NCBI GenBank assembly: GCA_022564995.1
Contig: JADFKK010000067.1
Location: 1-30,022, forward strand
From: Planctomycetota bacterium
GTDB lineage: Bacteria; Planctomycetota; Planctomycetia; Pirellulales; JADFKK01
Length of the DNA stretch: 30,022 nucleotides
Reading direction: 5' to 3'
The translations under genes were made by a program, and so were the position numbers. The notes below the pieces were generated by a model, which saw only the letters and a list, made by a program, of their open reading frames with translations, made no database searches and had not been told where the DNA came from. How positions within the stretch are numbered: the first letter of the stretch is position 1; each line of letters begins with the position of its first letter. Positions 3,001 to 18,355 of this stretch are shown piece by piece.

Positions 3001-5078
3001 TGGTCAGCGGGGAGCACGATGTTTCGGGCCTCAACTTGTTTGTGCAGATCGGTGATGGGGGGCCGGAGCTGGTGGAGTTTGGGCTGCCGGCCGGGACGCG
3101 GGGGCCGCGGATTACGGCGATTAGCTTGAAGACGGGGACGATCTTTGCCAGCGTGGGCGATCCACAGATCGACGAGCCGGGTAACTTGCCGCAGGTGATT
3201 AACTCGACGATTGCGCTGGCGGGTGACCCGACGACGATCGAGGCCGACGGAACGCTGGCCATCCTCACCATCGACACGACGGGGCTGTTTGGCGGCGAGT
3301 GGGACTTGCTGCTCTCGGGCGTGCTGCCCGGATTGGTCGGCGGGCCGTTCGAGACCGACTTTGCGGGCGAGCCGGCGATTATCGAAAGCGGAAAGCTACG
3401 GATCGTGCCGGCCGAAGTGGTCGATCGTCTCGTGTTCTACAACGATTCGGTGTTCGACGGGCGCGACGCGGCGGCCGGCGAGGCCGACGACGCGGCCATC
3501 GCCCCCGACAAAACGGCCCTGCTGAGCGGCAACAAGGCGACCTTCGCCAATTACACCAGCTTCGCCGGCGGCATCACCGGGGTGATGCTCGACGTCGCGC
3601 GGCTGCTCGTGCCCGACGGGCTCACCGCCGGCGACTTCACTTTCCGTAATGGACGAAGCAACGACCCGTCCGCTTGGCAGCCGACGGACGCGCCGGCGAG
3701 TGTGACCGTGCGATCGGGCGCCGGTGTGAACGGTTCCGACCGCATCAGCCTCACCTGGCCGGCGGGCACGATCGAGGGCACCTGGCTCGAGGTCACGCTC
3801 AAATCGAACGCCAACACGGGTCTGCGGGCAGACGACGTGTTTTACTTCGGCAGCGCGGTGGGCGAGTCGGGTAACAAGCCCACCGACGCGCTGGTGAACG
3901 CCACCGATGTGATCGCCGTGCGCAACAATCCCCGCGGCCCGCTGGACCAAGCCGACCTGGAAAACCGGCTCGACTTCAACCGCGACGCGTTGGTCAACGC
4001 GACCGATTTGGTGCTGGCCCGCGATCATACGACGGGGCTGTTTTCGGCGCTGCCGCTGATTACGCCGGTGGCGACTGGCGGGGCGCCAAGTCCGGGAGCG
4101 GCAGCGGCAGCGGCTGCTGCGCCGCAAGCGGCTGGGGCGCCGGCAGGGGAAATGCCGACGATCGTTGTTGGCGAGTATACGCTAGCGGCCGACACGCCGA
4201 ATCAACAGATCGAGATCTTCGTCAGCGGCGGACAGTCGGTCGCCGGGGTGAATCTGGTCGCGCAGGTCGGCGACGGCGGACCGGAACTGGTCGACTCCGG
4301 CTTGCCGGCCGGCACCGACGGACCGGCCATTTCGTCGGTCGATTTGAAGACGGGTACGATCTTCGCCGCCCTCGACGATCCGCAATTCGACTCGGCCAGC
4401 CTGCCGCAGGTGCATTTTACCTCGTTGGGAATCGCATCGGCCAACACGACCGTCTCGGCCGATGGTTTGCTGGTGACGCTCTTCATCGACACGACCGGTA
4501 TCTTCGGCGGCAGCTTCCAACTACTGCTCGCCGGCGTGCTGCCGCAACTGACCAACGGCCCGTTCGCCACCGACTTCGCCGGCATTCCGATCGAAATCAC
4601 CAACGGCATCATCATCGTCGAGTCATCTCAACCGGCCGATCTGACCGGTAACGGGTTCGTCGATTTTGAGGATCTGACGGTGTTGCTGGCCGCTTGGAAT
4701 CAAGACGTCTCGGCCGCGGAAGGGAATCTTGTCGATGCGGACAACACGCCGGTAAATTTTGAGGATCTGACCGTGCTCTTGGCGGCTTGGACGGGGCCGG
4801 GGCCGGCGGGCGCTCCCGTAGGCCGCCGGCTTGCCGCGGCGCAAGAGACGTCGCCGAATGTTGGGTCGGGTTTTGAGAGTGATGTTGAGCGGGAGACGCC
4901 GCGGCAAGCCGCGGCCTACTTCGATCGTCTCGTGGCCCGCCGCGATCATTCCCATTCCGCGCTCCGCCGCCTGCAATCGGCCGCGGTTGATCGGGCGATG
5001 GCGGATGACGGCCTGAGCGACGGATTGCCACGTCGCGAAAATCACTTCTCGCGGCGTTCCCGCCGCAGCGGACGTTGA
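1..5078 (+). CDS. Giant secreted adhesin-like protein, 5'-truncated at the window edge. It contains cadherin-like/Ig-like repeats, a LamG/ConA-like domain, a C-type lectin domain, two dockerin-like repeat pairs and a tandemly duplicated roughly 150-aa beta module.
   Basis: The reading frame is open from position 3, and the Met at position 9 is internal. The N-terminus (DFFGQDTFTYRANDGEFDS...ATVIIVVNPINDAPVA) looks like the end of a cadherin-like repeat. The motif FTY..DG....A.VTITV..VNDAP recurs at least 8 times. The LamG-like block at aa 75-270 includes FTIEAWIKPE, FGTFGNSLIFTTYG and LDEVAVYGRAL. The C-type lectin block at aa 470-620 includes WPENGNFYGI, KTWAQAKAAV, HLLTITS, FIGLND, EGTFVWV and WNVGEPSN. 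Dockerin-like pairs are DALVNATDVIAV...DFNRDALVNATDLVLA and DLTGNGFVDFEDLTVLLAAW...VNFEDLTVLLAAW. The modules at nt 2965-3410 and 4190-4630 are clear paralogs, each followed by a dockerin pair. The stop codon is at 5076-5078. Confidence 0.85.
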   Translation, partial: TYMPEADFFGQDTFTYRANDGEFDSSAATVIIVVNPINDAPVAVDDQLLVIANKSLIVPAPYEQLILDDGPIGYWRLGETTLSVALDTSGNGLHGSYEGGVLLGNSGAISLNSDTSANFDGSTSRVAVPSPTSLNDLRNNFTIEAWIKPEALDGWQRIFSSPPEPKGFAFGTFGNSLIFTTYGVKDYFSTAARIVPGIWQHVAVVFDADNDASYFVNGSFVQKVSGNTPARAATGRFFIGSSGGSSYFDGSLDEVAVYGRALAPEEIEEHYLFGTSPASIGSRGVLANDIDVDGDQLVANLVADVQHGSLLFNTDGSFEYTPERDFVGIDTFTYLASDGQAESNIALVTIKVNGPLAGDDEYEIDEDEALAVGAAGGLLSNDGNDGSGDLTAVLVDDVRNGTLTLSPDGSFTYEPTANFFGTDRFTYIAVDDELDTDLATVTITVHAVQDAPVTVDDKYVADEDTAFPPPVEIPPGLTLVEWPENGNFYGIIEESKTWAQAKAAVEALEVSGNPGHLLTITSDAENDFVNAAVLSSTSARRIFIGLNDTETEGTFVWVTGEPVTFSNWNVGEPSNSGDEDVVELHWLGGAWRWNDVPSWFKNPAYVVEFESSPDPSVLDNDRDADGDPLIVTLVENVKHGALDLRPDGTFTYVPDPEFSGKDTFTYRASDGTLESELATVTITVEPVNDAPTADDDGGYELDEDGELIVDAAAGVLVGDTDAEDDPLTARLVDDVEHGTLALADEGSFSYTPNADFFGEDSFTYVANDGELDSQLATVTITVNPIDDPPLAVDDVYDVNEDVVLVAEGGLAVTTNDEEPDGDALAVTLIDDAMHGTLELAANGTFVYTPGQDFNGTDSFTYRVDDGTTTSNVATVTITVVPVNDPPLAEDDAFRVPTSGSLVVAAEAGLLANDSDVEGDPLTVILVEGPAHGTLLLSDDGSFEYTPEGTFNRFDSFTYRAGDGQDLSEIATVSLTLDAPLVEAGDHILRANTPGQTISILVSGEHDVSGLNLFVQIGDGGPELVEFGLPAGTRGPRITAISLKTGTIFASVGDPQIDEPGNLPQVINSTIALAGDPTTIEADGTLAILTIDTTGLFGGEWDLLLSGVLPGLVGGPFETDFAGEPAIIESGKLRIVPAEVVDRLVFYNDSVFDGRDAAAGEADDAAIAPDKTALLSGNKATFANYTSFAGGITGVMLDVARLLVPDGLTAGDFTFRNGRSNDPSAWQPTDAPASVTVRSGAGVNGSDRISLTWPAGTIEGTWLEVTLKSNANTGLRADDVFYFGSAVGESGNKPTDALVNATDVIAVRNNPRGPLDQADLENRLDFNRDALVNATDLVLARDHTTGLFSALPLITPVATGGAPSPGAAAAAAAAPQAAGAPAGEMPTIVVGEYTLAADTPNQQIEIFVSGGQSVAGVNLVAQVGDGGPELVDSGLPAGTDGPAISSVDLKTGTIFAALDDPQFDSASLPQVHFTSLGIASANTTVSADGLLVTLFIDTTGIFGGSFQLLLAGVLPQLTNGPFATDFAGIPIEITNGIIIVESSQPADLTGNGFVDFEDLTVLLAAWNQDVSAAEGNLVDADNTPVNFEDLTVLLAAWTGPGPAGAPVGRRLAAAQETSPNVGSGFESDVERETPRQAAAYFDRLVARRDHSHSALRRLQSAAVDRAMADDGLSDGLPRRENHFSRRSRRSGR

Positions 5079-5168
5079 GGCGTCCCCTCTCCACCCGTTC
5101 AATAAGTCAGAGTATTCTCGAAATATCTCTGACCGGTAGGCGAATACCGGCTTGAGGATCGTTATACT

Positions 5169-5870
5169 GTGTGCCTTGCTGCGGGCTTTTCTGCGGGCTG
5201 CATTACGGACTCATGCGGAGCTGGTGCGATCATGGAATTCATCGAAAACTGCTTCACAGGCCCCAATTATCCCGCCTCGGTGATGATGGTCCTGATTCTG
5301 ACCTACGGGCTTATGGTCGCCCTGGGCGGGCTGAATCTCGATCTGTTCGACATCGACATCGATTTTGACGCCGACGTGGACATCGACGGAGGGGTGACGA
5401 GCATCGGCTTCGTGGCATTAAAATTCTTGAATATCGGCAATGTTCCAATCATGATATGGGCATCGGCCTTTGGCCTGGCGTGGTGGACCGCCTCGATGCT
5501 GTTGTGGGAATTGTTCGACCAGGCCAGTTACCACGAGGACTTTTGGCGCACCGTACCCCTGGTGCTGCGTAACGTGGTGCTCGGCGTCGTGGCGACGAAG
5601 TTCATCACGCAGCCGATGGTGAAGATGTTTGACCACACAGATAATTACCAACCCGAGGATCTCATCGGCCAGGAGTGCGAAGTCACAACATACGAGGTCA
5701 CCGCGGATGCGGGACAAGCCAAATTCGCGACCGACGCGGCGCCCTTGTTGATCGACGTGCGATCTGAAGACGGGCCGCTGGCGAAGGGCGATCGGGCGCT
5801 GATCGTCGATTTTGATCCTGAAGAAAAACTTTATTTCATCACCAAGCCAGACACCGAGGTATCGACATGA
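5169..5870 (+). CDS. NfeD/YqiJ-like inner-membrane protein with a C-terminal OB-fold, the usual partner of flotillin. The true start may be the ATG at 5232 (MEFIENCF).
   Basis: It has 3-4 hydrophobic helices (VMMVLILTYGLMVALGG, IMIWASAFGLAWWTASMLLW, VLRNVVLGVVATKFI) and an acidic DIDIDFDADVDIDGG segment. The C-terminus is a soluble beta-rich tail of about 80 aa (QECEVTTYEVTADAGQAKF...GDRALIVDFDPEEKLYFI). The stop codon shares the ATGA overlap with the flotillin start at 5867-5870. Confidence 0.6.
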   Translation: MCLAAGFSAGCITDSCGAGAIMEFIENCFTGPNYPASVMMVLILTYGLMVALGGLNLDLFDIDIDFDADVDIDGGVTSIGFVALKFLNIGNVPIMIWASAFGLAWWTASMLLWELFDQASYHEDFWRTVPLVLRNVVLGVVATKFITQPMVKMFDHTDNYQPEDLIGQECEVTTYEVTADAGQAKFATDAAPLLIDVRSEDGPLAKGDRALIVDFDPEEKLYFITKPDTEVST

Positions 5871-7990
5871 ACGTTCTCATCGCAGGTTTGATGGAAATCG
5901 GGATCGCCTTACTTCCATATGTGATCGTTTTCGTGGTCGCCGTTATGATCGCCGGTTTGGCCATGTCTCGCTTCTATCGCAAGGTCGCGCCGGAGGAGGC
6001 CCTGGTGCGTGCTGGCTGGGGCGAACTCACCGTAGCCAGCGGCCAGGGGATGTGGGTCGTGCCACTCCTGCATCGGGTCGACCGCATGGACCTGACGCTC
6101 AAACGAATCGAAATCTCGCGCCAGGGCACCGACGGTTTGATCTGCAAGGACAACATTCGCGCCGACATCAAGGTGGCCTTCTTCGTGCGCGTCGACAAAC
6201 AGGCCGACAAGATCAAGGAAGTCGCCCAATCGATCGGTTGCAAGCGAGCCTCCGACGAACACACGCTGATCGAGTTGTTCGACGCGAAATTCTCGGAGGG
6301 GCTCAAGACGGTCGGCAAGCAGTTTGATTTCGTCGAACTCTACGACAAGCGCGACCAATTCAAGGCGGAAATCATCAAGGTGATCGGCACCGACCTGAAC
6401 GGTTACCGGCTGGACGATGCGGCGATCGATTATCTCGAACAGACGCCGCTGAGCCTGCTCAGCCCCGACAACATTCTCGACGCCGAAGGCATCAAGAAAA
6501 TCACCGAACTGACCGCCCGCGAGCACATTTTCGCCAACGACATCACCCGCGAGAAGGAAAAGACGATCAAGAAGCAGGACGTCGAAGCCCGCGAGGCGAT
6601 TCTGGCCCTGGAGCGCCAACTGGTCGAGGCCGAAGAGAAGCAGCAGCGCGAGGTGGCGGAGATTCGCGCCCGCGAGACGGCCCAGGCCCGCAAGGTCGAA
6701 GCCGAGCAGTTGCTCAAGTCCGAAACGGCCCGCATCAGCACGGAGGAAGAAGTTCGTGTGGCCGAGGAAAACAAAGACCGCCAGATCATCGTCGCCGAAA
6801 AGAACAAAGAGCGGACCGAAGCGGTCGAAATCGAGCGGGTCGAGAGAGACCGGCTGCTCGAACGGACCGAACGCGAGCGGCTGGTCGGCATCGCCCAGGT
6901 CGAGAAGGAAAAGGCGATCGAAGTCGAGAATCGCAACATTCAGGAAGTCATCCGCGAACGCGTGGTGGTCCAGCGGGCCGTCGTGGAACAGGAAGAGAAG
7001 ATCAAGGACACGCAGGAGTTTGCCGGGGTCGATCGTTTGAAGAAAGTGACGGTCACCAAGGCCGAAATGACCGCGCAAGAGGCTCTCGTCAAACAGGTCA
7101 AGGCGGCCGAGGCGGCCAAGTCGGCCGCGGAACTCAAAGCCGAGCAGACCGTCGTCGAGGCGGAGGCCGATCGCAAGGCGGCCGAGCGGCAAACGCAGGC
7201 GATCAAGATGTTGGCCGAAGGAAAAACGGCCGACGAGGCCGCCTCGGGCTTGGCCGAAGCGCAGGTCACCACCGCCAAGGCCGACGCCACCGAGAAGATG
7301 GGCACCGCCGAGGCCAACGTGACCGAGAAACAAGCCGTCGCCGAGGCCAAGGGCGTGGCCGCGATGGCCACGGCCAAGGAGCAGGACGGCACGGCCGAAG
7401 CCACCGTGATGGAACTCAAGTTCACTGCCGAAGCGAACGGAATCGAACACAAGGCGGAAGCCATGAAACTGTTCGACAGCGTCGGCCGCGAGCACGAAGA
7501 GTTCAAGTTACGGCTCAACAAGGACAAAGACATCGACATGGCCGCCATCGACGCGCAGAAAGACATCGCCGAGGCGCAATCGCAACTGGTCGGCGAAGCC
7601 CTCAAGTCGGCCCACATCGACATCGTGGGCGGCGATATCGACTTCTTCGACAAGATCGTCGACGCGGTCAAGGGCGGCAAGGCGGTCGATCGGTTTGTTC
7701 ACAGCAGCGAAGTGTTGACCGACGTGAAGAACTCGTTCTTCAACGGAAACCCCGAGTATTTCCGCGACAAGCTGCAACAACTCGTGGGGCAGTTCGACCT
7801 CAGCACCGACGACATCAAAGACCTGTCGATCGCCGCCCTGATCACCCGCATGCTCGGCATGACCAACAGCGACGAAACCCGCGGCGAATTGAGACGATTG
7901 ATGGGCATGTTCACCAACCTGGGCATGTCCAGCGAAAAAGTCGCCACCTTGAAGCTCGATTCGCCCGGCGTGGGAAAGACGGACGGGTAA
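5867..7990 (+). CDS. Flotillin-family SPFH/band-7 protein (YqiK-like) with a long C-terminal Ala/Glu/Lys-rich coiled coil.
   Basis: It has an N-terminal transmembrane helix followed by an SPFH core: VRAGWGELTV...DRMDLTLKRIEISRQGTDGLICKDNIRADIKVAFFVRVDK. The RTGxGG and AFFVRV blocks match the E. coli YqiK pattern. A roughly 400 aa EA-repeat coiled coil follows (AEAEADRKAAE...). Confidence 0.9.
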   Translation: MNVLIAGLMEIGIALLPYVIVFVVAVMIAGLAMSRFYRKVAPEEALVRAGWGELTVASGQGMWVVPLLHRVDRMDLTLKRIEISRQGTDGLICKDNIRADIKVAFFVRVDKQADKIKEVAQSIGCKRASDEHTLIELFDAKFSEGLKTVGKQFDFVELYDKRDQFKAEIIKVIGTDLNGYRLDDAAIDYLEQTPLSLLSPDNILDAEGIKKITELTAREHIFANDITREKEKTIKKQDVEAREAILALERQLVEAEEKQQREVAEIRARETAQARKVEAEQLLKSETARISTEEEVRVAEENKDRQIIVAEKNKERTEAVEIERVERDRLLERTERERLVGIAQVEKEKAIEVENRNIQEVIRERVVVQRAVVEQEEKIKDTQEFAGVDRLKKVTVTKAEMTAQEALVKQVKAAEAAKSAAELKAEQTVVEAEADRKAAERQTQAIKMLAEGKTADEAASGLAEAQVTTAKADATEKMGTAEANVTEKQAVAEAKGVAAMATAKEQDGTAEATVMELKFTAEANGIEHKAEAMKLFDSVGREHEEFKLRLNKDKDIDMAAIDAQKDIAEAQSQLVGEALKSAHIDIVGGDIDFFDKIVDAVKGGKAVDRFVHSSEVLTDVKNSFFNGNPEYFRDKLQQLVGQFDLSTDDIKDLSIAALITRMLGMTNSDETRGELRRLMGMFTNLGMSSEKVATLKLDSPGVGKTDG

Positions 7991-8035
7991 CGCGAGAGTG
8001 GCGGGGACCGTCGCAGAAATTAGTTACGCGGTTTT

Positions 8036-8150
8036 TCCATTCAAATCCGAAATCCGAAATCCGAAACAAATTCAAAGCACGAATGTCACAAACCTTCCGA
8101 ATGTCCGACGTTTTTGACATTTGAGATTTGGATTTTTTGATTTGTTTCGC
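8036..8150. repeat. AT-rich imperfect inverted repeat built from tandem heptamers in the flotillin to giant-ATPase intergenic region.
   Basis: (AAATCCG)x3 followed by AAAC lies at 8044-8067, with inverted degenerate copies (TTTGAGA, TTTGGAT, TTTTTGA, TTTGTTTCG) at 8110-8148. Three AATGTC/GACATT motifs sit in the centre, and an A8 tract lies at 8163-8170. The local GC is far below the genome background. Confidence 0.7.
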
Positions 8151-8290
8151 CGTGTTGTATTGAAAAAAAAGGCGTACTTCGGATTTGCGATCTCGTTAAA
8201 CTGCCCAAATTGTTCATGCGCGACCTCTAGGTGGTCAGCAGTGACCCGTTACGAGTCATTCGGCGCCCGCCCTCAATCCAAGAACACACG

Positions 8291-11200
8291 ATGGCTCAAG
8301 CCGACCAAGCCAAGACCGGCTCCGCCGAGATTCAACTCGAAAGCGGCACTTACGAGATCCTGCGCAATCGGCTGGTGGCGCATGCCAAGGAGCTGCGCGG
8401 CCGGCTGGACCAATTGAACGTGGCTCGCAAGGAAGTCTTCGGCGCGATCGAGACGACGCTGCTGGCGACCGATCGGATCACGACCGAGCATAACTGCCAG
8501 CCGCGCGACATGGTCTCTCTCGGCGACGTGTTCCTGTTCGGCTACAACATCCACTTCGGGCTGAAGAGCGAAACGACGCTGTCGGACGTGTTCGCCGCCT
8601 ATGAAATGCGGGATCACTCGTTTCACCAGCAGTCGCTGGCGATGCTCGAAGACCAGCAATTCAAGCGCGACTTTCAGGAGGTCTATCGCTACTACAAAAA
8701 GGCCGTCTTTGCGAAGTTCTTTCTCACCGGCCCGCATCTGTACATGGTGTTTCGGGTCGGCCTCAACGTCAGCGACATCAAGACGTTCAAGTGGTTGCTG
8801 CGCGACGGCACGCTGAGCTACGTCGACAACCGCAGCGATCACGAGGTGCAATTCCCGCCGCAGCACGAGTTTGAGTGGACGCGAACGCATCGCGATTTGC
8901 AACAGTCGGGCTTGCACCCGCACATTTCGATCGAAGATCGGCTGTTCGTCGAGACAATCGGCGGCGATCTGACGATCAAGATCGAAAACAACACGGAATC
9001 CGGCGAGGGCATCTACGCCGAGCCGGTCGACAATCCCGACCAGACGCTCGACGACGCCGTGATTTACTACGCCGTGGTCGGCAACATCATCCTGCTGAAG
9101 ATTCGGCCTTATCAGGAAGAGAATTTTCGCTACATCGTCTACAACGAAAAGATCCAACAGGCCCGCCGCATCGACGCCATCGAACATGCCTGCGTGCTGT
9201 TGCCGGACGATCACGGGCTGATTTTCTCGAACGGATACTATCTGCAAAACGGCGAACAAAAGACGTTCGACCACGCGCTGCAGGACATGTTGTTCGAGCG
9301 GCGCATCGCGGCCCCCAACGGCGAAGATTACCTGTACGTGTTTTACAACCGCAAGACGGGCGTCTACGTCCTGCTGCGGTATAACGTGATCGAGCAGAAG
9401 GTCGACACGCCGCTGATCTGCAACGGCTCGTCGCTGTTTCCGGCGGGCGAACTGGTTTGTTTTCGCAGCGACGAGGAGGCAAAAAAACATCACACGTTGC
9501 AGGTCTGGCAAACGCCCTACGTCGACGAAGACTTCCTGCCGCAAACCAACACCGACTCGCTGCTGTTCAAAATCGGCAATCGCGACATGGTCCGCGGCAT
9601 GGCCGAGTGTCACGAAGTGCTGGGCCTGATCGAGAAGGAAGACACTTACGCCGGGCTGTACATCGATCTGGTTAAGAAGGCCGGCGACATCCTCGACGCT
9701 TACTTCTGGATCGATCACGAAGAAACCTTTAAGCCGAGCGAGCCGCTGCAGGAAATCAAGCGGACAGCCGCCGCCGCGATCGATGAATTCGAAAAGGTCG
9801 TCAAGGTCAAGCAGGCCACGCTCGGCCAGTGCAAAGAGGTCGAGGGCCGCACGCGCAAGATTCTCACCGACGTTCACCACCGCCGCTACGAGAGCATCGA
9901 CGAATTCGTCTCCTCGCTGGGCGATCTGCGGACGGTCCGCGGCGCGATCATTTCGCTGCGCGAGCTGCGCTACGCCGACGAGACACTCATCGAATCGCTG
10001 GAAGCCGAAGTCATCGATCAGTCGGACCGGCTGGCGGCGCGCTGTGTCGACTTCCTGCTCAGCCCGGGCGCGCTGGCGCCGTACCAGCAGCGTGTGGCCG
10101 GGCAGAAACAAGCCGTCGAGCCGCTGGAAAAAGTCGCCGACGCCCGCAAGCTCGAAGAGCAGGTGACCGCCAGCGCCCAAGAACTGGAAATGCTGATCGA
10201 GATCGTCAGCAACCTGAAGATCGACGACGCCACCCAGCGAACGGCGATCATCGACAGCATCTCGGACATCTTCGGCCAGGTCAACGCGACCCGCTCAGCC
10301 CTTAAAGCGAAAATTCACGACCTGCTGTCGGTCGAAGGCATCGCCGAGTTCGGCTCGCAGATCAAGCTGCTCGATCAGAGCGTGGTCAGCTATCTCGACC
10401 TCTGCAAGACGCCCCAGCGGTGTGAAGAGCTGCTCACCAAGGTGATGATCCAGATCGAGGAGATGGACGGTCGTTTTGCCGAATTCGACGAATTCATCGT
10501 CCAACTCAGCGAAAAACGCGACGAGATTTACAACGCCTTTGAATCGCGTAAGCTGGCGCTTATCGAGAAGCGCAACCGGCGCGCGACGGCCTTGATGAGC
10601 GCCGCCGAGCGAATCCTCAAGGGCATCAAGACGCGGGTCGAAAGCCTCGACTCGATCGACGCGATCAACAGCTATTTCGCCTCGGACCTGATGATCGAGA
10701 AGGTCCGCGATCTGGTCGAACAACTCAATGAGCTGGACGACACGGTTAAGGTCGACGACGTCCAAAGCCGGCTCAAGACGGTCCGCGAAGACGCCGTTCG
10801 CCAATTGAAAGACCGCCAGGAACTGTTCGTCGACGGCGAGAACATCATTAAATTAGGCAACCACCAATTCACCGTCAACATTCAAGCCCTCGACCTCACC
10901 ACGGTGCAGCGCGACGGCGCGATTCATCTGCACCTGACCGGCACCAACTTCTTCGAGGTTCTCGACGACCAGCAGCTCAACGCCGCCCGCGACGTCTGGC
11001 AGCAGGAAGTCGTCTCGGAAAACGACGCGGTCTATCGGGCGGAGTATCTCGCCTACCTGTTAATGCAACACATGCGGCACGACGCCGACGCCCGCGAGGC
11101 TTTCTTGAAGGCGGACGGGCCGGCCCGCGTCAAGCAGGTTCAGCGATTCATGGGCCCCCGCTACCGCGAAGCCTACGTCAAGGGCGTCAGCGATCACGAC

Positions 11201-13717
11201 GCGGCGAAAATTCTGTTTGAACTGCTGGAGATGAACGCCAACGTCGGGCTGCTGCGGTTTCACACCCAAAGCCGTGCCCTGGCCTGGGTCTATTGGCACC
11301 ATTTTGCCGAACGCGAACAAAAAGCACTGATCGAGGACAAGCTCAAAGGCTTCGGCGTAATCTCGCAGTTGTTCCCCGAAACGAGCCAGCAGGCCGCCTA
11401 CGTCGACGAACTGCGGGTGTTGCTCGACGCATTCGTGAGCCAGAACGATCTGTTCGATGCATCGCTCGCCGCCGAGGCCGCTGAGTATTTGTTCTGCGAG
11501 CTGGCCCACGGCGGGCCGTTCTGCACGAGCCGCACGGCGGCCGATTTGCACGAGGCCTTTCATCGTCACCTGCGACAAAACAGCTTCGAGCCGAAATTCA
11601 ACGAGACGGTCGAGTCGGTGAAGCGCGACGCCACGAGCCATTTCATGTTGACCCGCGATTGGGTCGAGGCCTTCCTCGACGGCGACGCGGCCTCGTCCGA
11701 ATATCGAGACGAACTGGCCACCGTGTTGATGCACGGCAAGCTCGAAGGCCGCTCAATCATCGATGGCCAAGTGACCTGCACGATTGGCGACATGGTCGGT
11801 TCTCACGCGGTCATCCAATCGGGATCGTACGCGCTACACTACAACCACTTCATGCGGAAGCTGGCCGATTACCAGCGCGACGTCGTGCCGCGCTTCGAGG
11901 CCTTTCACGACCGCAAGACGGCCCTGGTCGACGCCGCCCGCGACGACATGCGGCTCGACGAATTTCGCCCCCGGGTGCTGACCTCGTTCGTCCGCAACAA
12001 GCTGATCGACACGGTCTATCTGCCCATGATCGGCGACAACCTGGCCAAGCAAATCGGCGCGGCCGGCGAACAAAAGCGAACCGACCGCATGGGCTTGCTG
12101 CTGTTGGTCTCGCCGCCCGGTTACGGCAAGACGACGCTGATGGAATATCTGGCCAATCGCCTGGGCGTCATCTTCATGAAGATCAACGGCCCGGCCATCG
12201 GACATCAGGTCACCTCGCTAGATCCGGTCGAGGCGCCCAACGCCGCGGCCCGCGAGGAAGTCGAAAAATTGAACCTATCGCTCGAGATGGGCGACAACGT
12301 GATGATCTATCTCGACGACATCCAACACTGCAATCCCGAATTCCTGCAAAAGTTTATCTCGCTGTGCGATGCCACCCGCAAAATCGAGGGCGTCTACAAA
12401 GGTCGCACGCGAACCTACGACTTGCGCGGCCGCAAGGTCATCGTCGTGATGGCCGGCAATCCGTACACCGAAAGCGGCGAGCGTTTCCAAATTCCCGACA
12501 TGCTCTCGAACCGGGCCGACGTCTACAACCTGGGCGAGATCATCGGCGACTCGGCCGAAGCCTTCGAGATGAGCTACCTGGAAAACTGCCTGACCAGCAA
12601 TTCGGTGCTCAACAAGCTGGCCAGCCGCAGCCAAAAAGACGTGCAAGCCGTGATCAAGATGGCCGAAACGGGCGACCGCCAGGGCATCGAACTGGAAGGC
12701 AGTTACTCGCCCGACGATCTGAACGATTTCGTCGTCACGATGAAGAAGCTGACCAAGGTCCGCGACGTGATTCTCGCCGTGAATCGCCAATACATCGATT
12801 CCGCCGCCCAGTCGGACGACTACCGCACCGAGCCGGCCTTCAAGCTGCAGGGCTCGTACCGCAACATGAATCGCATTGCCGAGAAGGTCGTGCCGATCAT
12901 GAACGACGACGAGTTGCAACGGCTGATTCTCTCGAACTACGAAAACGACGCCCAAACGCTGACCTCCGACACCGAATCGAACCTGCTCAAGCTCCGCGAG
13001 TTGCTCGACATCCTCACCGACGAGGAAGCCCGCCGTTGGAACGACATCAAGCGGACCTTCCAGGAAAACGTCAAGATGAAGGGCATCGACGCCGACGATC
13101 AGGTCGGTCAGGTGATCGTCCAGATGCGCTCCTTCAACGACGGACTGTACGCCATCCAGCAAGGCATGGCCGCAGGCGTCAAGTCGCTCACCGAGGCCGA
13201 CGGCAAGAGCGACGAGGAGCAGCAGCAAGTCGCCGCGCTCGTCGAACACCTAACCGGGCTCAACACGGGTCTGAACGACATCCGCGACACACTCTCCGGC
13301 GGGCTAACGAAAATCCTCGAAAACGCCGCGCAGCCGTCTGAGCCGGTCGGTCCGACGGAGGCGGAAACCATATCTGCGCAGATGGCCCCCGCGGCCGAGG
13401 CGATGATGGCCCTGGCCGATGAGCTGCGCGAGTTGACCACCGGAACGATCCCGATCGATCCCAAGCGTCAGACGCGCATCTCGGTCACTCACAAGGTGCC
13501 CCGTTCGATTTTGGCGGTCATCGAAAGCCAGTTCCAACTGATGAAAGACTCAATCGCCCCGGTGCTCGCCGCCTCGCACGAGCAAAGCGCGGAACTCCAA
13601 CAACTCCGCGAAACCCTCCGTTCGTCTCTCGACAAATCGGCCGAATTTCTGGAAGAACTTCAAGCAGCGAGACACAAAGCAGACAAGCGGGCGCAGGCGA
13701 CTCGCCCGCCGGCATGA
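8291..13717 (+). CDS. Giant cytoplasmic protein of about 1,808 aa from the ATG at 8291 (1,828 aa from the GTG at 8231). It has a single AAA_5/MoxR-type ATPase module in the C-terminal third and extensive coiled coils. Its family is unassigned.
   Basis: There is no signal peptide or transmembrane helix. Walker A (LLLLVSPPGYGKTTLMEYL) lies at about nt 12100-12140, Walker B (VMIYLDDIQH) at about 12301-12330, and an ATQNP-like sensor (VIVVMAGNPYTESGERFQIPDMLSNRADV) at about 12440-12530. The central and C-terminal regions are long and helix/coiled-coil rich. The N-terminal 470 aa resemble no domain I can name. The gene is co-oriented 300 bp downstream of flotillin. Confidence 0.8.
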   Translation: MAQADQAKTGSAEIQLESGTYEILRNRLVAHAKELRGRLDQLNVARKEVFGAIETTLLATDRITTEHNCQPRDMVSLGDVFLFGYNIHFGLKSETTLSDVFAAYEMRDHSFHQQSLAMLEDQQFKRDFQEVYRYYKKAVFAKFFLTGPHLYMVFRVGLNVSDIKTFKWLLRDGTLSYVDNRSDHEVQFPPQHEFEWTRTHRDLQQSGLHPHISIEDRLFVETIGGDLTIKIENNTESGEGIYAEPVDNPDQTLDDAVIYYAVVGNIILLKIRPYQEENFRYIVYNEKIQQARRIDAIEHACVLLPDDHGLIFSNGYYLQNGEQKTFDHALQDMLFERRIAAPNGEDYLYVFYNRKTGVYVLLRYNVIEQKVDTPLICNGSSLFPAGELVCFRSDEEAKKHHTLQVWQTPYVDEDFLPQTNTDSLLFKIGNRDMVRGMAECHEVLGLIEKEDTYAGLYIDLVKKAGDILDAYFWIDHEETFKPSEPLQEIKRTAAAAIDEFEKVVKVKQATLGQCKEVEGRTRKILTDVHHRRYESIDEFVSSLGDLRTVRGAIISLRELRYADETLIESLEAEVIDQSDRLAARCVDFLLSPGALAPYQQRVAGQKQAVEPLEKVADARKLEEQVTASAQELEMLIEIVSNLKIDDATQRTAIIDSISDIFGQVNATRSALKAKIHDLLSVEGIAEFGSQIKLLDQSVVSYLDLCKTPQRCEELLTKVMIQIEEMDGRFAEFDEFIVQLSEKRDEIYNAFESRKLALIEKRNRRATALMSAAERILKGIKTRVESLDSIDAINSYFASDLMIEKVRDLVEQLNELDDTVKVDDVQSRLKTVREDAVRQLKDRQELFVDGENIIKLGNHQFTVNIQALDLTTVQRDGAIHLHLTGTNFFEVLDDQQLNAARDVWQQEVVSENDAVYRAEYLAYLLMQHMRHDADAREAFLKADGPARVKQVQRFMGPRYREAYVKGVSDHDAAKILFELLEMNANVGLLRFHTQSRALAWVYWHHFAEREQKALIEDKLKGFGVISQLFPETSQQAAYVDELRVLLDAFVSQNDLFDASLAAEAAEYLFCELAHGGPFCTSRTAADLHEAFHRHLRQNSFEPKFNETVESVKRDATSHFMLTRDWVEAFLDGDAASSEYRDELATVLMHGKLEGRSIIDGQVTCTIGDMVGSHAVIQSGSYALHYNHFMRKLADYQRDVVPRFEAFHDRKTALVDAARDDMRLDEFRPRVLTSFVRNKLIDTVYLPMIGDNLAKQIGAAGEQKRTDRMGLLLLVSPPGYGKTTLMEYLANRLGVIFMKINGPAIGHQVTSLDPVEAPNAAAREEVEKLNLSLEMGDNVMIYLDDIQHCNPEFLQKFISLCDATRKIEGVYKGRTRTYDLRGRKVIVVMAGNPYTESGERFQIPDMLSNRADVYNLGEIIGDSAEAFEMSYLENCLTSNSVLNKLASRSQKDVQAVIKMAETGDRQGIELEGSYSPDDLNDFVVTMKKLTKVRDVILAVNRQYIDSAAQSDDYRTEPAFKLQGSYRNMNRIAEKVVPIMNDDELQRLILSNYENDAQTLTSDTESNLLKLRELLDILTDEEARRWNDIKRTFQENVKMKGIDADDQVGQVIVQMRSFNDGLYAIQQGMAAGVKSLTEADGKSDEEQQQVAALVEHLTGLNTGLNDIRDTLSGGLTKILENAAQPSEPVGPTEAETISAQMAPAAEAMMALADELRELTTGTIPIDPKRQTRISVTHKVPRSILAVIESQFQLMKDSIAPVLAASHEQSAELQQLRETLRSSLDKSAEFLEELQAARHKADKRAQATRPPA
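12050..12700 (+). other. AAA_5/MoxR-like P-loop ATPase module of the giant protein.
   Basis: It carries GYGKTT (Walker A), a hhhhDD Walker B, and an NP(Y) sensor-1 with an arginine-containing segment downstream. This is the MoxR/dynein-related subtype rather than the classical AAA SRH. Confidence 0.65.
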
Positions 13718-13805
13718 ATGAGGGTTGACGGGTGTGGCTAGGGTCGACCTGCGCTTTAACGAGCGACGATCCCCAGCGGCGCGTTTCATAAAACAGAGAT
13801 CACCC

Positions 13806-13840
13806 GTTGACTCGAATGGTAAGATTCGTGGTACAATCAT
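13806..13840 (+). promoter_or_regulatory. Sigma-70-like promoter candidate: TTGACT, a spacer, then TGgTACAAT (extended -10).
   Basis: ttgactcgaatggtaagattcgtggtacaat lies about 8 nt upstream of the small ORF ATG at 13844. It gives a near-consensus -35 and -10, though the 19 nt spacer is long unless the -35 is shifted. Confidence 0.3.
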
Positions 13841-13843
13841 TCC

Positions 13844-13996
13844 ATGGCGACCGTCAACTATCTCGACCGCTTTCTCGACCCGATAAGTGATGCCTTCACT
13901 CCCCAGATGGCTCGCACTATCGTGGAGCTGCGCGCCGAACCGGAGTTGCAGGCCCACGTAGAATTGCGAGGGCTGTGGCTAGACGGACGTTAGACG
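13844..13996 (+). CDS. Small ORF of 50 aa (MATVNYLDRFLDPISDAFTPQMARTIVELRAEPELQAHVELRGLWLDGR*) at the edge of the low-GC island. It may be a gene remnant or a small regulator.
   Basis: It is absent from the ORF track, probably because it is under 60 aa. It has a good promoter-like sequence upstream and is convergent with the island gene. I recognise no homology. Confidence 0.2.
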
Positions 13997-14024
13997 TTCT
14001 GATCGGGTGAGTGCTTGGCGTCGA

Positions 14025-15911
14025 CTATGCCAAGCTCAACATGAATTCAACCCGTTCCTTGTCGATTACCTCGGTTCGATTGAGCAGTCGAATCGGAAAC
14101 GGCTTCTTCGGCTCGATAGTTTTCCATTGATCCGCAAGGTGCTTCAGCGCACTCGCCTCGATCAGAGCTACGTCCCAGTTCGTTTTTGCTTTGTATCGAT
14201 GCGCGAGTTTGATGGATTGCGGTGTGAAGGACGGCCCGATGACCAAGAAGGCGAGCGGCTGATTGCCTTTCTCCCTTTCTTTGCGCAAGTAGGAGTCAAA
14301 TTGATCGTCAAGGTGGTCCTGGAGATTCACTTGAGCTTCAACCGACTTGTTGTCCCACAGAATCACTTGATTGTTGTCGAGAGGGATTCTGCCGTCGGCC
14401 TTAGTCACTTTCTGTCGTTTGTCGATCTTGACGTTCAACATCACCTCGAACAGAAAGTCTGTTGCTTCCTCGAACTGGTGTTCGATGTCGAGATCCTTCA
14501 CGATGAGCTTTTTCGCCTTCAGGTCAGAATACGATCTGCTTGCGAGAAGTTCGTAGTTATTGTACCACTCTTCCCGCTTGTCCTGCGTCGCGCGTTCTTC
14601 AAAGGTCAGATCGTCGTAGAATTCGATAAGTCGGTTTTGGAAATCTGACTTGTTCCCGGAACTCTTGAGACCGACTAGACGACACATGTCAGACAACTTT
14701 GATCGATCCAAGTCGTCCAGAATGTTACTTGGCTTAATGTCGCTCGTGACGATACGCTCGATGAGGTCAGCCTTGTTTCCGTAGCGATCCATATTTTTCG
14801 CCTGAAGAAAGGTTCGTAGGTCAGGCAATCGAACGGCGTCATGCTCCAGGATTCTGCGATAATTGGTCCGCTGCAACTCCAAGCCGTTGCTCTGCTCGCG
14901 GAGAACCATAACGACCTCGAACGGAATCACATCGATGTTTCGGTTGTTCTCGTCCCGATAACTCCAGAGAAGCGATTCGCGCTGAAGCTCCTTTCGTGCA
15001 TCGTGTACTTCATCTCGCGAGTGTAGCGCGCACTTCGCCTTTGGGAACCTGTGAAGATGAGCACCAATGAGCCAGTGTTCTTCGCGCGAGATGTTTAAGT
15101 GCCCCCTTAGAACTCGCAGGAGTGCAGCCTCATCATAAGAAACATCGTCCTGATTGCGCCAAGCCGCATCCAGAACAAGGCGATAGGTATCGTAATGGTG
15201 CCACCGCATGGCGTCATGTTTCTTCGGATCGAAGAAGTCGAGCTTTTTTGCTCGTTTAACGAGAGCCTTCTCATACTCAAGCACTTTTTCCTCCAGGCGG
15301 TTCTCATCAAGGCTGTGAGTCTCTTCCTGAAGGAGTATTGCGAACAGGATGATCTCTTTCAGATTGCGGCGGTCAACGTCGGGATCGATTTTTTCGAGGC
15401 TTTCGATGATCCTTCCTTTGGCGACCAGCTTCTTGGCGTCCTTGAGAATGCGATTTGTCAAGTCGCCGTCGTTCATGCCTTTCGTCGATTCAAGGAATTG
15501 CCCGAGTATCCGTAGCTTCACCCTCTTGAGCATGTGAGGCGCGATGTCTGCGACCCGTTTACACAGCGCTCGACGGCCGAGCAGTCGCTGTTCTTTGGCG
15601 TCACGTTTTGGCTCACGGCGCTTCTTTCGTTTACGCGCCGTTGGTTGAGGCGGCGGCACTAGTCCGGTGTCCTTGGTCGCGTCAGCTTGATTGCTGTCGA
15701 CCGTTTCGCTTGTGCGTAGCACGTCGTCGTCGGACGTTTCCTCGACGAGTAAACCTGGCTCATCGTCATCGCTAGCCTCTCCAGCAACCACAATACTCTG
15801 CGGCTCCGTTGTCGCGTCGGATGACGACTCTACGTCGTGGTGGATGTCGTTTGCCGACCGCGATGCGTCGGACTCAACTTGTGGACTTGGTGTTGGAATA
15901 TCGTTCGACAC
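14025..15911 (-). CDS. Island protein of 628 aa. It has an acidic disordered N-terminus and a basic KRKKRR patch, two tandem SAP DNA-binding motifs, and a C-terminal domain that looks like a PD-(D/E)xK restriction-endonuclease-like nuclease.
   Basis: The gene is about 47-50% GC against roughly 65% in the flanks. SAP motif 1 is LPDLRTFLQAKNMDRYGNKADLIERIV and SAP motif 2 is LDRSKLSDMCRLVGLKSSGNKSDFQNRLIEFY; both fit L..L.V.EL...L..RGL...G.K..LI.RL. The C-terminal domain has E/D-rich FEEATDFLFEVM, then ADGRIPLD, then VILWDNKS (a D-x-K motif), then Q/E-rich LAFLVIGPSF. The start codon is probably GTG, so the true N-terminus is uncertain. Confidence 0.75.
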   Translation of the reverse strand: MSNDIPTPSPQVESDASRSANDIHHDVESSSDATTEPQSIVVAGEASDDDEPGLLVEETSDDDVLRTSETVDSNQADATKDTGLVPPPQPTARKRKKRREPKRDAKEQRLLGRRALCKRVADIAPHMLKRVKLRILGQFLESTKGMNDGDLTNRILKDAKKLVAKGRIIESLEKIDPDVDRRNLKEIILFAILLQEETHSLDENRLEEKVLEYEKALVKRAKKLDFFDPKKHDAMRWHHYDTYRLVLDAAWRNQDDVSYDEAALLRVLRGHLNISREEHWLIGAHLHRFPKAKCALHSRDEVHDARKELQRESLLWSYRDENNRNIDVIPFEVVMVLREQSNGLELQRTNYRRILEHDAVRLPDLRTFLQAKNMDRYGNKADLIERIVTSDIKPSNILDDLDRSKLSDMCRLVGLKSSGNKSDFQNRLIEFYDDLTFEERATQDKREEWYNNYELLASRSYSDLKAKKLIVKDLDIEHQFEEATDFLFEVMLNVKIDKRQKVTKADGRIPLDNNQVILWDNKSVEAQVNLQDHLDDQFDSYLRKEREKGNQPLAFLVIGPSFTPQSIKLAHRYKAKTNWDVALIEASALKHLADQWKTIEPKKPFPIRLLNRTEVIDKERVEFMLSLA

Positions 15912-16075
15912 CTGCTCCCTCCTGTCATAAGAGGCCCTAGGGGCGGACTATCTTCATGCCGCCGACTCCGATAGCCTAACGGACGAAGGGTTGGGGATGC
16001 AAGTAGACCTAATAATCAATCGCATCCTTACGACGCGCGTGACACCGAGGGCCACTGGCATGGTACCGCCAGGGG

Positions 16076-16311: not shown

Positions 16312-16441
16312 GTGGCTACCGAAACCACCAGGCTTTGTCAGAAAACATCAGCCGCGACGCGTTAGCGTCCGGTTCTCAGCGTAACTCGTCGCCAAAACCG
16401 GGGGCTAGCGCCCCGCGGCTGACAAACCACCAGCTAAAGCT
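16312..16441. repeat. Related palindromes: TGGTGGCTACCGAAACCACCA, and a perfect 20 bp palindrome CCACCAGCT-AA-AGCTGGTGG at about 16422-16441.
   Basis: Inverted repeats read directly from the sequence. The second contains the same GCTAAAGC core as the CCGG-type copies. Confidence 0.7.
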
Positions 16442-16694: not shown

Positions 16695-17597
<903 letters not shown>

Positions 17598-17617
17598 AAC
17601 AAGCGAGGAGTTCATTC

Positions 17618-18355
17618 ATGAGATTTTTCTTGCTCGGTAATCCGCCGATGCGGTCGTTATTGGCCGGATTCGTTCTGCTGTTGGCAACGCGGGGCGCCGG
17701 CGCGTTTGAGCCAACTTCGCAGTATGTGGTCAAGGAGATCGCGGGTTGGAAGGTGTATGTTCACCGCGATCTGCTGCCGGGCGGGAAGCAGCGGGAGACG
17801 GGGGCGCCGGCCTTGAAGAAGCTGGAGCACGGCTTGGCGATGGCGCGGCAGATGGTGGCCGATGGCCCGCTTAAGAAGCTACAAAAGGTGAAGATCTGGC
17901 TGGAGGTCGACTCGACCCGTGGCAAGCACGGCCGCACATCGGCTTATCAGTATCATCCCGGGCTGGATTGGCTGAAGAAGATGGACTTTAATCCCCAGAA
18001 GCTCAAGTGCGTCGAATTCGGCAACGCCGCGAGCCTGGCCAAGCGGTCCGATTTCAAAACGGTCTATGTGACGATGCACGAGTTGGCCCACGCGCTGCAT
18101 CATCAGGTGTACACGTTTGAAGATCCCGACGTGATCGCCGCCCACAAGCGGGCTCGCGAAGAGGGCAAGTATCCGCCGCGGGATTGGGTCGTGCGGGCCA
18201 ACCACAAAGAGTTTTTCGCCGGGCTGTCGACGCGGTATTTTGAATCGGAAGAAGTCCGCAAGCAGCTCGCCGAGCGCGATCCGGTCTTCGCCAAGAAGCT
18301 GGAAGAGTTCTGGGGCAAGCCGAAGGCGCTGATGGACGCGCCGCTGAAGAAGTGA
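17618..18355 (+). CDS. Secreted protein with an HExxH motif (MHELAHALHH), possibly a zinc metallopeptidase-like enzyme. The ATG at 17618 is preferred over the TTG at 17594.
   Basis: GAGGAG lies 7 nt upstream of ATG 17618. The signal peptide is MRFFLLGNPPMRSLLAGFVLLLATRGAGA. The only recognisable catalytic-looking feature is HELAHALHH. Confidence 0.7.
   Translation: MRFFLLGNPPMRSLLAGFVLLLATRGAGAFEPTSQYVVKEIAGWKVYVHRDLLPGGKQRETGAPALKKLEHGLAMARQMVADGPLKKLQKVKIWLEVDSTRGKHGRTSAYQYHPGLDWLKKMDFNPQKLKCVEFGNAASLAKRSDFKTVYVTMHELAHALHHQVYTFEDPDVIAAHKRAREEGKYPPRDWVVRANHKEFFAGLSTRYFESEEVRKQLAERDPVFAKKLEEFWGKPKALMDAPLKK

Follow-up and report, generated by a model that had tools for sequence, protein, structure and literature searches.

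The locus and its base composition

The window analysed here, i.e. the whole stretch of 30,022 nucleotides, carries on its reverse strand a complete gene for a SAP-domain nuclease of 628 amino acids (Table 1). This open reading frame, borne out by the ORF list, had been described in an earlier note as standing alone between unrelated genes, and this is indeed its setting: its neighbours are a giant convergent DUF3686/AAA gene and, at the other end, a PfkB gene in divergent orientation. An identical protein (P0001) is recorded from a contig of a public metagenome, and annotation of the family goes no further than 'hypothetical' or 'SAP domain-containing'.

The GC content of the gene is 0.520 (0.508 in its conserved body), against 0.595 for the window and 0.597-0.622 for the flanking genes. 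The GC deficit claimed previously is real, but it amounts to 7.5-11 points and not to 15. GC3 is also low, at 0.62, some 3.6 standard deviations under the mean of 14 other window genes (range 0.707-0.827), so the low GC is not due to amino-acid bias only. No repeat flanks the gene in the window.

Table 1. Position and basis of the features of the SAP-nuclease gene (coordinates in the window)
Feature	Residues	Position	Strand	Basis or detail
Complete gene for the 628-aa SAP-domain FokI-type nuclease	1-628	14025..15911	-	GTG start at 15911, stop codon 14025-14027; ORF list
Acidic, intrinsically disordered N-terminal tail	1-89	15645..15911	-	Net charge -19; pLDDT <50 for residues 1-88; charge analysis
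Basic patch PTARKRKKRREPKRD	90-104	15600..15644	-	Net charge +7; translation
N-terminal DNA-binding body: helical region and winged-helix domain(s)	113-345	14877..15575	-	
SAP domain 1	~356-392	14736..14846	-	PF02037 best stretch 361-388; helices 362-371 and 380-389
SAP domain 2	~401-436	14604..14711	-	SAP_new25 (PF18953) at 406-435; helices 403-412 and 421-434
C-terminal FokI-type PD-(D/E)xK cleavage domain	445-628	14028..14579	-	
Codon of E481, invariant glutamate of the nuclease-core helix	481	14469..14471	-	Alignment, translation
Codon of D506, 'PD' aspartate in the invariant A-D-G motif (FokI D450)	506	14394..14396	-	hhalign register, translation
Codons of D520-N521-K522, (D/E)xK motif (FokI D467-x-K469)	520-522	14346..14354	-	hhalign register, translation

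Architecture of the protein

The C-terminal 185 residues fold as a FokI-type PD-(D/E)xK cleavage domain whose active site is intact and invariant. The restriction-endonuclease-like alpha/beta core superimposes on the C-terminal domain of FokI, and its closest counterparts are the restriction enzymes FokI, BspD6I and HindIII, not VRR-nuc, Mus81 or resolvases. Residues E481, D506, D520 and K522 are invariant in the 55 sequences aligned and reach at least 90 % conservation among 38 broad-family sequences, down to 21 % identity. At the sequence level, similarity to the FokI cleavage domain is not significant (hhalign, E 0.6). Precomputed PF09254 matches exist for many members, unmarked (i.e. strong) for P0068, P0148 and P0186, but they were not reproduced by local hmmscan, which gave no match at E<=0.1 in 55 members. 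Programmable nucleases are built on cleavage modules of this FokI type.

The three motifs listed in the earlier note (FEEATDFLFE, GRIPLD and ILWDNKS) are all found in the translation. Its proposal of a PD-(D/E)xK nuclease held for the fold and had to be revised for the type, which is that of FokI rather than of Shedu, NERD or Mrr; Shedu (DUF4263), NERD and Mrr_cat gave neither a profile match nor the best structural match. Among the catalytic residues suggested, the D and K of WDNK are the invariant D520 and K522, whereas the D of PLD (D512) occupies a variable column, the conserved acidic residue being D506.

The two tandem SAP motifs recognised before were confirmed with PF02037 (33.8 bits for a cut-off of 23.9, in two stretches) and SAP_new25 (27.9 bits for a cut-off of 26.3), both models matching all 55 family members. 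Domain 1 matches the profiles of solved SAP structures, i.e. E1B-55kDa-associated protein 5 (1zrj), Tho1 and Ydc2 (1kcf), and the tandem arrangement resembles the pseudo-SAP/SAP module of DEK (Foldseek probability 0.95). SAP domains typify the chromatin proteins of eukaryotes; they have seldom been studied in prokaryotes and are not known to read DNA modifications.

Within the body preceding the SAP domains, the clearest winged helix spans residues ~295-345 (strands 316-319 and 325-328), and the winged-helix matches are generic (MarR, PadR, cullin WHB, TFIIIC eWH). The body shows no homology to the recognition domains of known Type IIS enzymes (e.g. FokI D1-D3). Neither SRA nor PUA was matched by Pfam in the window protein or across the 55 members, and no known modification-sensor domain (SRA, PUA/EVE/YTH or DpnI-type winged helix) was identified.

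Residues 1-112 are predicted to be disordered (pLDDT <50), in agreement with the extent of the acidic disordered region described earlier (~110 residues), its acidic part being limited to the N-terminal ~89 residues. An acidic tail occurs in 52 of the 55 family members (median charge -16.5). The basic patch is present as had been reported, and its R/K run is conserved in the family consensus (median charge +7). Both belong to an extension specific to the planctomycete clade: the tail is variable in sequence and missing from the distant relatives of ~500 residues, and the patch, always paired with it, is missing from relatives elsewhere.

Distribution and conservation

A scan of 185,579 species genomes, in which all 117 known family members were matched, located the gene at about 30 loci. 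Homologues of the protein form 156 clusters, whereas those of the adjacent PfkB exceed 7,900, i.e. the gene is at least 50 times rarer than this core gene. Its phylogenetic distribution is thus not that of a core gene, the alternative raised in the earlier note. Carriers are planctomycetes, Bradymonadia, Flavobacteriales, CPR, haloarchaea and one haloarchaeal virus, usually with one copy per genome.

Conservation is strong (mean column identity of 56 %, dN/dS of about 0.06-0.1) over three planctomycete orders, and the gene tree roughly tracks family-level taxonomy. The family is far better conserved than most defence nucleases, which is unusual for a mobile nuclease; high conservation and a taxonomy-like tree also fit a long-resident cellular function and count against a restriction enzyme.

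Mobility of the gene

GC content was lower than that of the flanks at 26 of the 27 loci. For the cultured high-GC Gemmataceae (Gemmata, Limnoglobus roseus and Zavarzinella), GC3 of the gene is fully host-like, another observation that does not favour a restriction enzyme. Homology ends at the gene edges, between congeners as well as between two copies in one MAG, and the genomic context differs in every genome, with no recurrent target gene. Such loss of synteny weighs little in this phylum, because even the core gene PfkB retains a single neighbour (LigT) in close relatives, a pairing that the window does not show.

In a distant relative from Lujinxingia, the nuclease is the sole gene of a 1.8-kb low-GC cassette lying between the copies of a perfect 152-bp target duplication, a precise and recent insertion devoid of any mobility gene. 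The cassette contains a degenerate second copy of the target segment (34/38), a hint that it had resided at a similar site before. Flanking repeats were found at this locus only (1 of 33). Other relatives reside in a haloarchaeal virus, on plasmids or beside integrases, these mobility markers being a raw count with no background control.

Long target duplication is a known sign of restriction-gene mobility (Types I-IV, Type IIS first; PMC2853133). The Lujinxingia insert resembles these mobile restriction genes in its low GC and long direct duplication, but the published inserts needed both R and M genes whereas the cassette holds the nuclease only, and the likeness concerns one locus, the window copy having no flanking repeat (Furuta, Abe & Kobayashi 2010, PMC2853133). 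As an accessory gene, the SAP nuclease is rare, changes place as a unit of one gene and is nearly always GC-poorer than its host. The horizontal acquisition proposed for the window gene agrees with the rarity and mobility of the family and with the GC deficit, the latter being smaller than first stated.

Genomic neighbourhood and comparison with known systems

In the ten contexts with Pfam calls, no DNA methyltransferase domain was detected up to 10 kb on either side; only in distant relatives does a methylase lie at a distance of a few kb, with an integrase or other genes in between. No defence island surrounds the gene in the window or at several other loci, where the neighbours are housekeeping genes only, as is also the case in several complete genomes. 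None of the families of PADLOC-DB v2 matched the SAP-nuclease protein, and the only match nearby was a PDC-S48 candidate defence gene, two genes away from one relative.

The window protein differs from FokI and the Type IIS enzymes (PF09254; PDB 1fok/2fok) by the lack of a nearby methyltransferase and by its body, with two SAP domains in place of the SAP-less D1-D3 recognition domain; the planctomycete clade further adds the acidic tail and the basic patch, and sequence similarity falls short of significance. A Type IIS R-M system was rejected, given the ten contexts without adjacent methyltransferase and the absence of a reader resembling FokI D1-D3. The nickase N.BspD6I and the small subunit R.BspD6I (2ewf, 2p14) are parts of an R-M system that has methyltransferases and recognises a defined site, whereas no partner subunit is conserved beside the SAP-nuclease gene.

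Comparable in organisation are the stand-alone modification-dependent fusions, e.g. DpnI-like PD-(D/E)XK-wH, wH-GIY-YIG and PUA-wH-HNH (PMC11037411). Like the SAP nuclease, these Type IV proteins join DNA-sensor domain(s), including a winged helix, to a nuclease in a single polypeptide, stand alone without methyltransferase, and are sporadic and horizontally mobile. The winged helix of the SAP nuclease is however not demonstrably DpnI-like, and the family is better conserved than is usual for such enzymes.

Alternative explanations

We considered whether the gene could encode a cellular structure-specific repair or recombination nuclease of planctomycetes, inherited vertically with many losses, in which the SAP domains direct the nuclease to branched, cross-linked or damaged DNA. 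Its analogues would be the eukaryotic FAN1 (SAP, TPR and VRR-nuc), SLX4-SLX1 and the resolvase Ydc2/Cce1, which bears an N-terminal SAP domain. SAP and nuclease are coupled in these factors too, and the FAN1 nuclease also belongs to the PD-(D/E)xK superfamily. Purifying selection across the three orders, the course of the gene tree, the housekeeping neighbours, the host-like GC3 of Gemmata, Limnoglobus roseus and Zavarzinella, the usual single copy, the SAP match to Ydc2 and weak profile matches of a few members to Slx4 and FANC_SAP all agree with such a function. However, these repair factors use VRR-nuc, GIY-YIG or RNase H-like nucleases, whereas the SAP nuclease is of the FokI type, lacks TPR and is distributed and mobile like an accessory gene: it is very rare despite a fully sensitive scan, poor in GC and GC3 in most hosts, and relocated as a single gene between congeners and within one MAG, and its relatives include copies carried by a virus, by plasmids and by a newly inserted cassette, or located next to integrases. 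A FAN1-like repair nuclease was rejected, as neither VRR_nuc nor TPR was matched and FANC_SAP was weak and restricted to 2 of the 55 members. A repair function is possible but rather unlikely.

A purely selfish, homing-like endonuclease gene, whose cut at the target promotes its own insertion with only incidental benefit to the host, would account for the Lujinxingia cassette and the target copy within it, for homology boundaries hugging the gene in other pairs and for the ever-changing context. It is nevertheless unlikely, since insertion sites vary between genomes without any recurrent target gene, flanking repeats are confined to one locus, long target duplications are also explained by general restriction-gene mobility, and no known homing-endonuclease family was matched; the gene moreover lies outside introns and inteins and, unlike free-standing homing genes, adjoins no conserved target. 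The eukaryote-like effector envisaged in the earlier note would have to enter a eukaryotic host by secretion and find chromatin by means of an NLS and the SAP domains, and it appears extremely improbable. The basic patch does resemble a classical NLS, SAP domains are mostly eukaryotic and the tandem module recalls that of DEK, but neither a signal peptide nor a known secretion domain was seen by eye and Pfam scan, the carriers are free-living planctomycetes, the other bacterial lineages named above, haloarchaea and a haloarchaeal virus, and the patch is tied to the acidic tail of one clade.

Proposed function and significance

The gene is most likely a stand-alone restriction-type nuclease, defensive or selfish, forming a unit of one gene, and we give a probability of roughly 55 % to its encoding a putative stand-alone, horizontally mobile, restriction-type DNA endonuclease. 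The winged-helix-SAP-SAP body would position the enzyme on DNA, and the single-active-site module, by analogy with FokI and the BspD6I subunits, would either dimerise to produce a double-strand break or nick one strand near the bound site. None of the ten contexts with Pfam calls showed a methyltransferase partner, and self-DNA must therefore be spared in another way, most likely through the need for a feature of foreign DNA (base modification, unusual structure or composition), in parallel with Type IV modification-dependent enzymes. In planctomycetes, the acidic tail beside the basic patch may autoinhibit the enzyme by occupying its DNA-binding surface. The biological role would be the exclusion of phages and other mobile DNA, a defence function that we infer, alongside a selfish mobility of the kind that restriction genes typically have.

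A more speculative and quite improbable variant is a methylation-independent nuclease for xenogeneic DNA, in which the SAP domains would sense AT-rich, bent, cruciform or supercoiled DNA in GC-rich hosts and license a FokI-type cut, the DNA-mimicking acidic tail keeping the planctomycete enzyme off the chromosome. The eukaryotic SAP proteins DEK and SAF-A recognise such physical or compositional properties of DNA. If true, this nuclease would parallel H-NS/Lsr2-type silencing, with destruction in place of silencing, and would be a new form of single-protein discrimination between self and non-self.

In this family, a FokI-type module is coupled to an undescribed DNA-binding body in which a helical region and a winged helix precede the two SAP domains. 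Its members occur in bacteria, archaea and a virus, and the gene travels alone. Should the protein prove to be a stand-alone restriction enzyme, it would represent a new reader class for Type IV-like defence, might yield a new tool enzyme and would give a first clue to the targets of prokaryotic SAP domains.

Protein architecture and nuclease domain

The ORF under study is real; an identical protein is encoded on a public metagenome scaffold. The ORF product is ordered as acidic tail, basic patch, helical/winged-helix body, two SAP domains and FokI-type nuclease domain. The earlier note had described the acidic disordered tail, the basic patch, the two SAP domains and several C-terminal motifs, all of which are present. 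Charge analysis delimited the acidic N-terminus to residues 1-89 (net charge -19), disorder was predicted for residues 1-112, and the basic patch PTARKRKKRREPKRD (net charge +7) follows directly. Winged-helix and SAP DNA-binding modules precede the nuclease domain; under Pfam curated thresholds, the SAP matches scored 33.8 bits for PF02037 (cut-off 23.9) and 27.9 bits for SAP_new25 (cut-off 26.3).

The FokI-type active site is intact, and dN/dS of 0.06-0.11 between relocated copies shows strong purifying selection; E481, D506-G507 (A-D-G motif), D520, K522 and E525 are invariant in the family. The motifs of the earlier catalytic proposal do exist, but its 'D of PLD' falls in a variable column and so is not the invariant Asp. 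In a profile-sequence alignment of the family with the FokI cleavage-domain sequence, the register places D506, D520 and K522 on FokI D450, D467 and K469, at a non-significant E of 0.6. Precomputed Pfam annotations include PF09254 (FokI cleavage domain) for about one third of the members, some without the weak flag, whereas a fresh hmmscan of 55 members against a local Pfam-A copy gave no PF09254 match at E ≤ 0.1, a discrepancy probably due to model version. Since the alignment is not significant and the PF09254 matches were not reproduced locally, the FokI-type assignment is based on fold and motif rather than on sequence statistics.

Coordinates of features in the window and at three comparison loci
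Locus	Feature	Coordinates	Strand	Remark
Window	SAP-nuclease ORF, 628 aa	14025..15911	-	GTG start; from ORF list
Window	Co-directional block: YqiJ-like membrane protein (233 aa), 707-aa protein, 1828-aa DUF3686/DUF7902/AAA protein	5169-13717	+	Convergent with nuclease gene
Window	Ser/Thr kinase-caspase (Peptidase_C14) fusion, 1139 aa	18415-21834	-	PADLOC matches
L037, Lujinxingia litoralis (QHKO01000014.1)	Perfect 152-bp direct repeat	9737-9888 and 11714-11865		Brackets cassette; 3' end of intact DUF2804 gene
L037, Lujinxingia litoralis	Degenerate 38-bp copy of repeat start	11631-11668		34/38; inside cassette
L041, Halorubrum virus Humcor1 (tailed haloarchaeal virus)	HrrHm1_140, 546-aa relative of wH-SAP-SAP-nuclease core	5449-7089		
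L042, Natrinema versiforme pNVE500 (megaplasmid)	546-aa relative	5449-7089		Same length as in Humcor1

Family and distribution

An exhaustive HMMER search yielded 295 representative clusters. Members of the close tier share 50-84 % identity over the body and come nearly all from Planctomycetota, namely Pirellulaceae, Planctomycetaceae, Gemmataceae and one Phycisphaeraceae bin; the tail (median charge -16.5) and the patch (median charge +7) are confined to the planctomycete clade. The distant tier, found in a Flavobacteriales MAG, Lujinxingia litoralis and a Dojkabacteria MAG, comprises proteins of about 500 aa (21-37 % identity) that lack tail and patch but retain the body in full, as well as the catalytic residues. 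The most distant relatives, carried by Halorubrum virus Humcor1, a Natrinema megaplasmid and Pseudoalteromonas chromids, align to query residues 286-625 (haloarchaeal) or 346/385-621 (Pseudoalteromonas); the nuclease domain is also matched by a PHROG of unknown function. The pNVE500 region around its relative, with an integrase and an N6-methylase a few kb away, may be a related provirus.

The gene tree roughly tracks family-level taxonomy. Loci L013 and L014 are apparently one stretch of about 8.6 kb, binned as 'Limisphaerales' and 'Gemmataceae' in the same study (as judged by locus length, match coordinates and GC values rather than by direct alignment), and copies among L018 and L030 come from bins labelled Latescibacterota and Actinomycetes. 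All of these are probably mis-binned planctomycete contigs, the alternative being cross-phylum transfer. The copies in three long-read-style MAGs (L030 6001-7575, L032 6001-7706 and possibly L031) carry several in-frame stops or frameshifts, which mark them as pseudogenes or else stem from indel errors in the assembly; intact copies occur in other MAGs of the same project.

Base composition and mobility

The GC deficit claimed in the earlier note exists, but instead of about 15 points it amounts to 7.5 points when the whole gene (0.520) is compared with the window (0.595), and to 9-11 points when the conserved body is compared with the adjacent genes. Third-position GC is also low (0.62 vs 0.707-0.827 in the 14 other window genes, about 3.6 standard deviations), so the deficit is more than amino-acid bias. 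The gene was GC-poorer than its flanks at 26 of 27 loci. Across loci the GC3 deficit averages 9 points, reaching 10-27 points in Pirellulaceae, the Phycisphaeraceae bin and several others, and GC3 in Gemmata, Limnoglobus roseus and Zavarzinella matches that of the host fully, a pattern that suggests a mix of older and more recent arrivals.

A core gene in a fixed chromosomal context, with low GC from amino-acid bias only, had been named as what would speak against defence; the evidence points the opposite way. Scanning one genome per species (185,579 species) returned 31 loci, and as the two search patterns recover 117/117 known close-tier proteins, the scan is essentially fully sensitive for that clade. 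The adjacent PfkB gene reaches at least 7,963 clusters at E ≤ 1e-60, against 156 for the nuclease family in the same protein database.

Three pairs of copies define what moves: two in the Gemmataceae MAG palsa_1347 (88.9 % nucleotide identity over 2,118 bp; L023 5465-7582 and L024 5630-7747), one in each of two Urbifossiella species (83 % over 1,921 bp) and one each in Limnoglobus and Zavarzinella (79 % over 1,688 bp). In all three, homology stops at the stop codon and at most 0.5 kb upstream, between unrelated flanks. The palsa_1347 copies lie on two contigs and reflect either a duplication within one genome followed by relocation or the binning of two strains into one MAG. The Lujinxingia litoralis homologue sits alone on a cassette of about 1.8 kb (GC 0.44-0.53 in a 0.65-0.75 background), freshly inserted as a one-gene unit with duplication of 152 bp of the target. 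Close to the two ends of the cassette is an 11-bp inverted match, CGCTGGTAAGT / ACTTACCAGCG.

Around the window copy no flanking repeat, tRNA or RNA element was found, nor an empty site for the gene, nor recurrence of the window neighbours beside any homologue. The closest PfkB orthologues (L045, L046 and L047) keep only a LigT-type 2'-5' RNA ligase next after PfkB; at window positions 16695-18355, PfkB is followed in its place by a 253-aa protein with a weak ATLF (anthrax-lethal-factor-like) metalloprotease match, which indicates local rearrangement on the PfkB side of the intergenic region as well. By this comparison, synteny is poor in the window's lineage even for core genes, which, like the rough agreement of the gene tree with taxonomy, qualifies the case for mobility.

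Neighbourhoods and other features of the window

Several relatives lie close to integrases, recombinases, transposases or conflict-system genes, in a tally that is a raw count with no background control. In the viral-database locus L044 (IMGVR_UViG_3300042691_047674), a low-GC block (1500-7543; 0.42-0.48 vs about 0.6) contains the SAP-nuclease, a TPR protein and a DEDDh/RNase T exonuclease that matches the PADLOC candidate defence gene PDC-S48 over its full length (E 2e-107). With a tyrosine integrase and an AAA_24 ATPase just outside, the block resembles defence cargo carried by an integrative element at its integrase end.

The 783-bp intergenic region of the window (nuclease start 15911 to PfkB 16695) is unusually long. 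Between 16120 and 16450 it holds a cluster of short hairpin-type motifs, with GCCGGC-TTTA-GCCGGC and variants occurring five times, together with CCACCAGC-TAAA-GCTGGTGG and a 27-nt inverted repeat (16348-16422); GGCTTTAGCC, expected 1.15 times in the window, is matched 7 times there, and five of these matches fall in the cluster. This cluster, a possible REP-like element or regulatory array, is organism-specific (also present at comparison locus L001) and was not found upstream of other family members.

Pfam labels DUF3686, a domain of the 1828-aa protein, 'ATPase involved in DNA repair', and the 707-aa protein has no Pfam match; the block formed with the YqiJ-like protein gave no PADLOC match and no co-occurrence with the nuclease elsewhere. 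Inside the 707-aa ORF (5867-7990), positions 6501-7500 show an extreme AT skew (+0.46 to +0.48), far above the rest of the window, suggesting strongly biased coding, probably low-complexity or coiled-coil. In the kinase-caspase fusion, the kinase part matches PADLOC PD-T4-6 and mad6 and the caspase part a PADLOC caspase model; it could be a conflict/programmed-death type protein or one of many planctomycete kinases.

Discussion

We favour a stand-alone, mobile restriction-type nuclease serving defence and/or its own spread (probability about 0.55). The wH-SAP-SAP body would dock the enzyme on DNA, where the single-site cleavage module might dimerise for a double-strand cut or nick one strand, as FokI and BspD6I subunits do. 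With a FokI-type cutter joined to a separate reader, the predicted enzyme resembles a hybrid between Type IIS and Type IV. Having no FokI-type reader and, within ±10 kb in the ten contexts with Pfam calls, no DNA methyltransferase, it does not belong to the Type IIS restriction-modification systems; like Type IV enzymes, among which it might be counted, it is stand-alone and mobile. By the reasoning put forward for winged-helix fusion endonucleases, in which stand-alone enzymes are expected to depend on a property of foreign DNA (PMC11037411), its action would be expected to depend on modification, unusual structure or unusual composition of that DNA and not on host methylation. More speculatively, the acidic tail beside the basic patch might act as an intramolecular DNA mimic restraining the enzyme.

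A cellular repair nuclease seems unlikely: the SAP-plus-nuclease logic is common to FAN1, SLX4-SLX1, Ydc2 and this protein, but the nuclease families differ, and the gene is rare and moves alone. That one-gene mobility would also suit a purely selfish, homing-like element, which we consider slightly less likely still. The eukaryote-targeting effector put forward in the earlier note, with tandem SAP domains and the basic patch on its side and prokaryotic and viral carriers on the other, is barely credible. The single-protein defence reading proposed there survives the refutations offered for it, and we continue to infer it.

The present analysis bears out the finding and defines it more sharply than the earlier note did. 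The component parts are known; the combination and the family are undescribed, and the literature searched gave no description of a wH-SAP-SAP-FokI-type architecture. What is unusual is a tandem SAP reader in prokaryotes, a mobile nuclease that is so strongly conserved, and insertion as one gene with a 152-bp target duplication.
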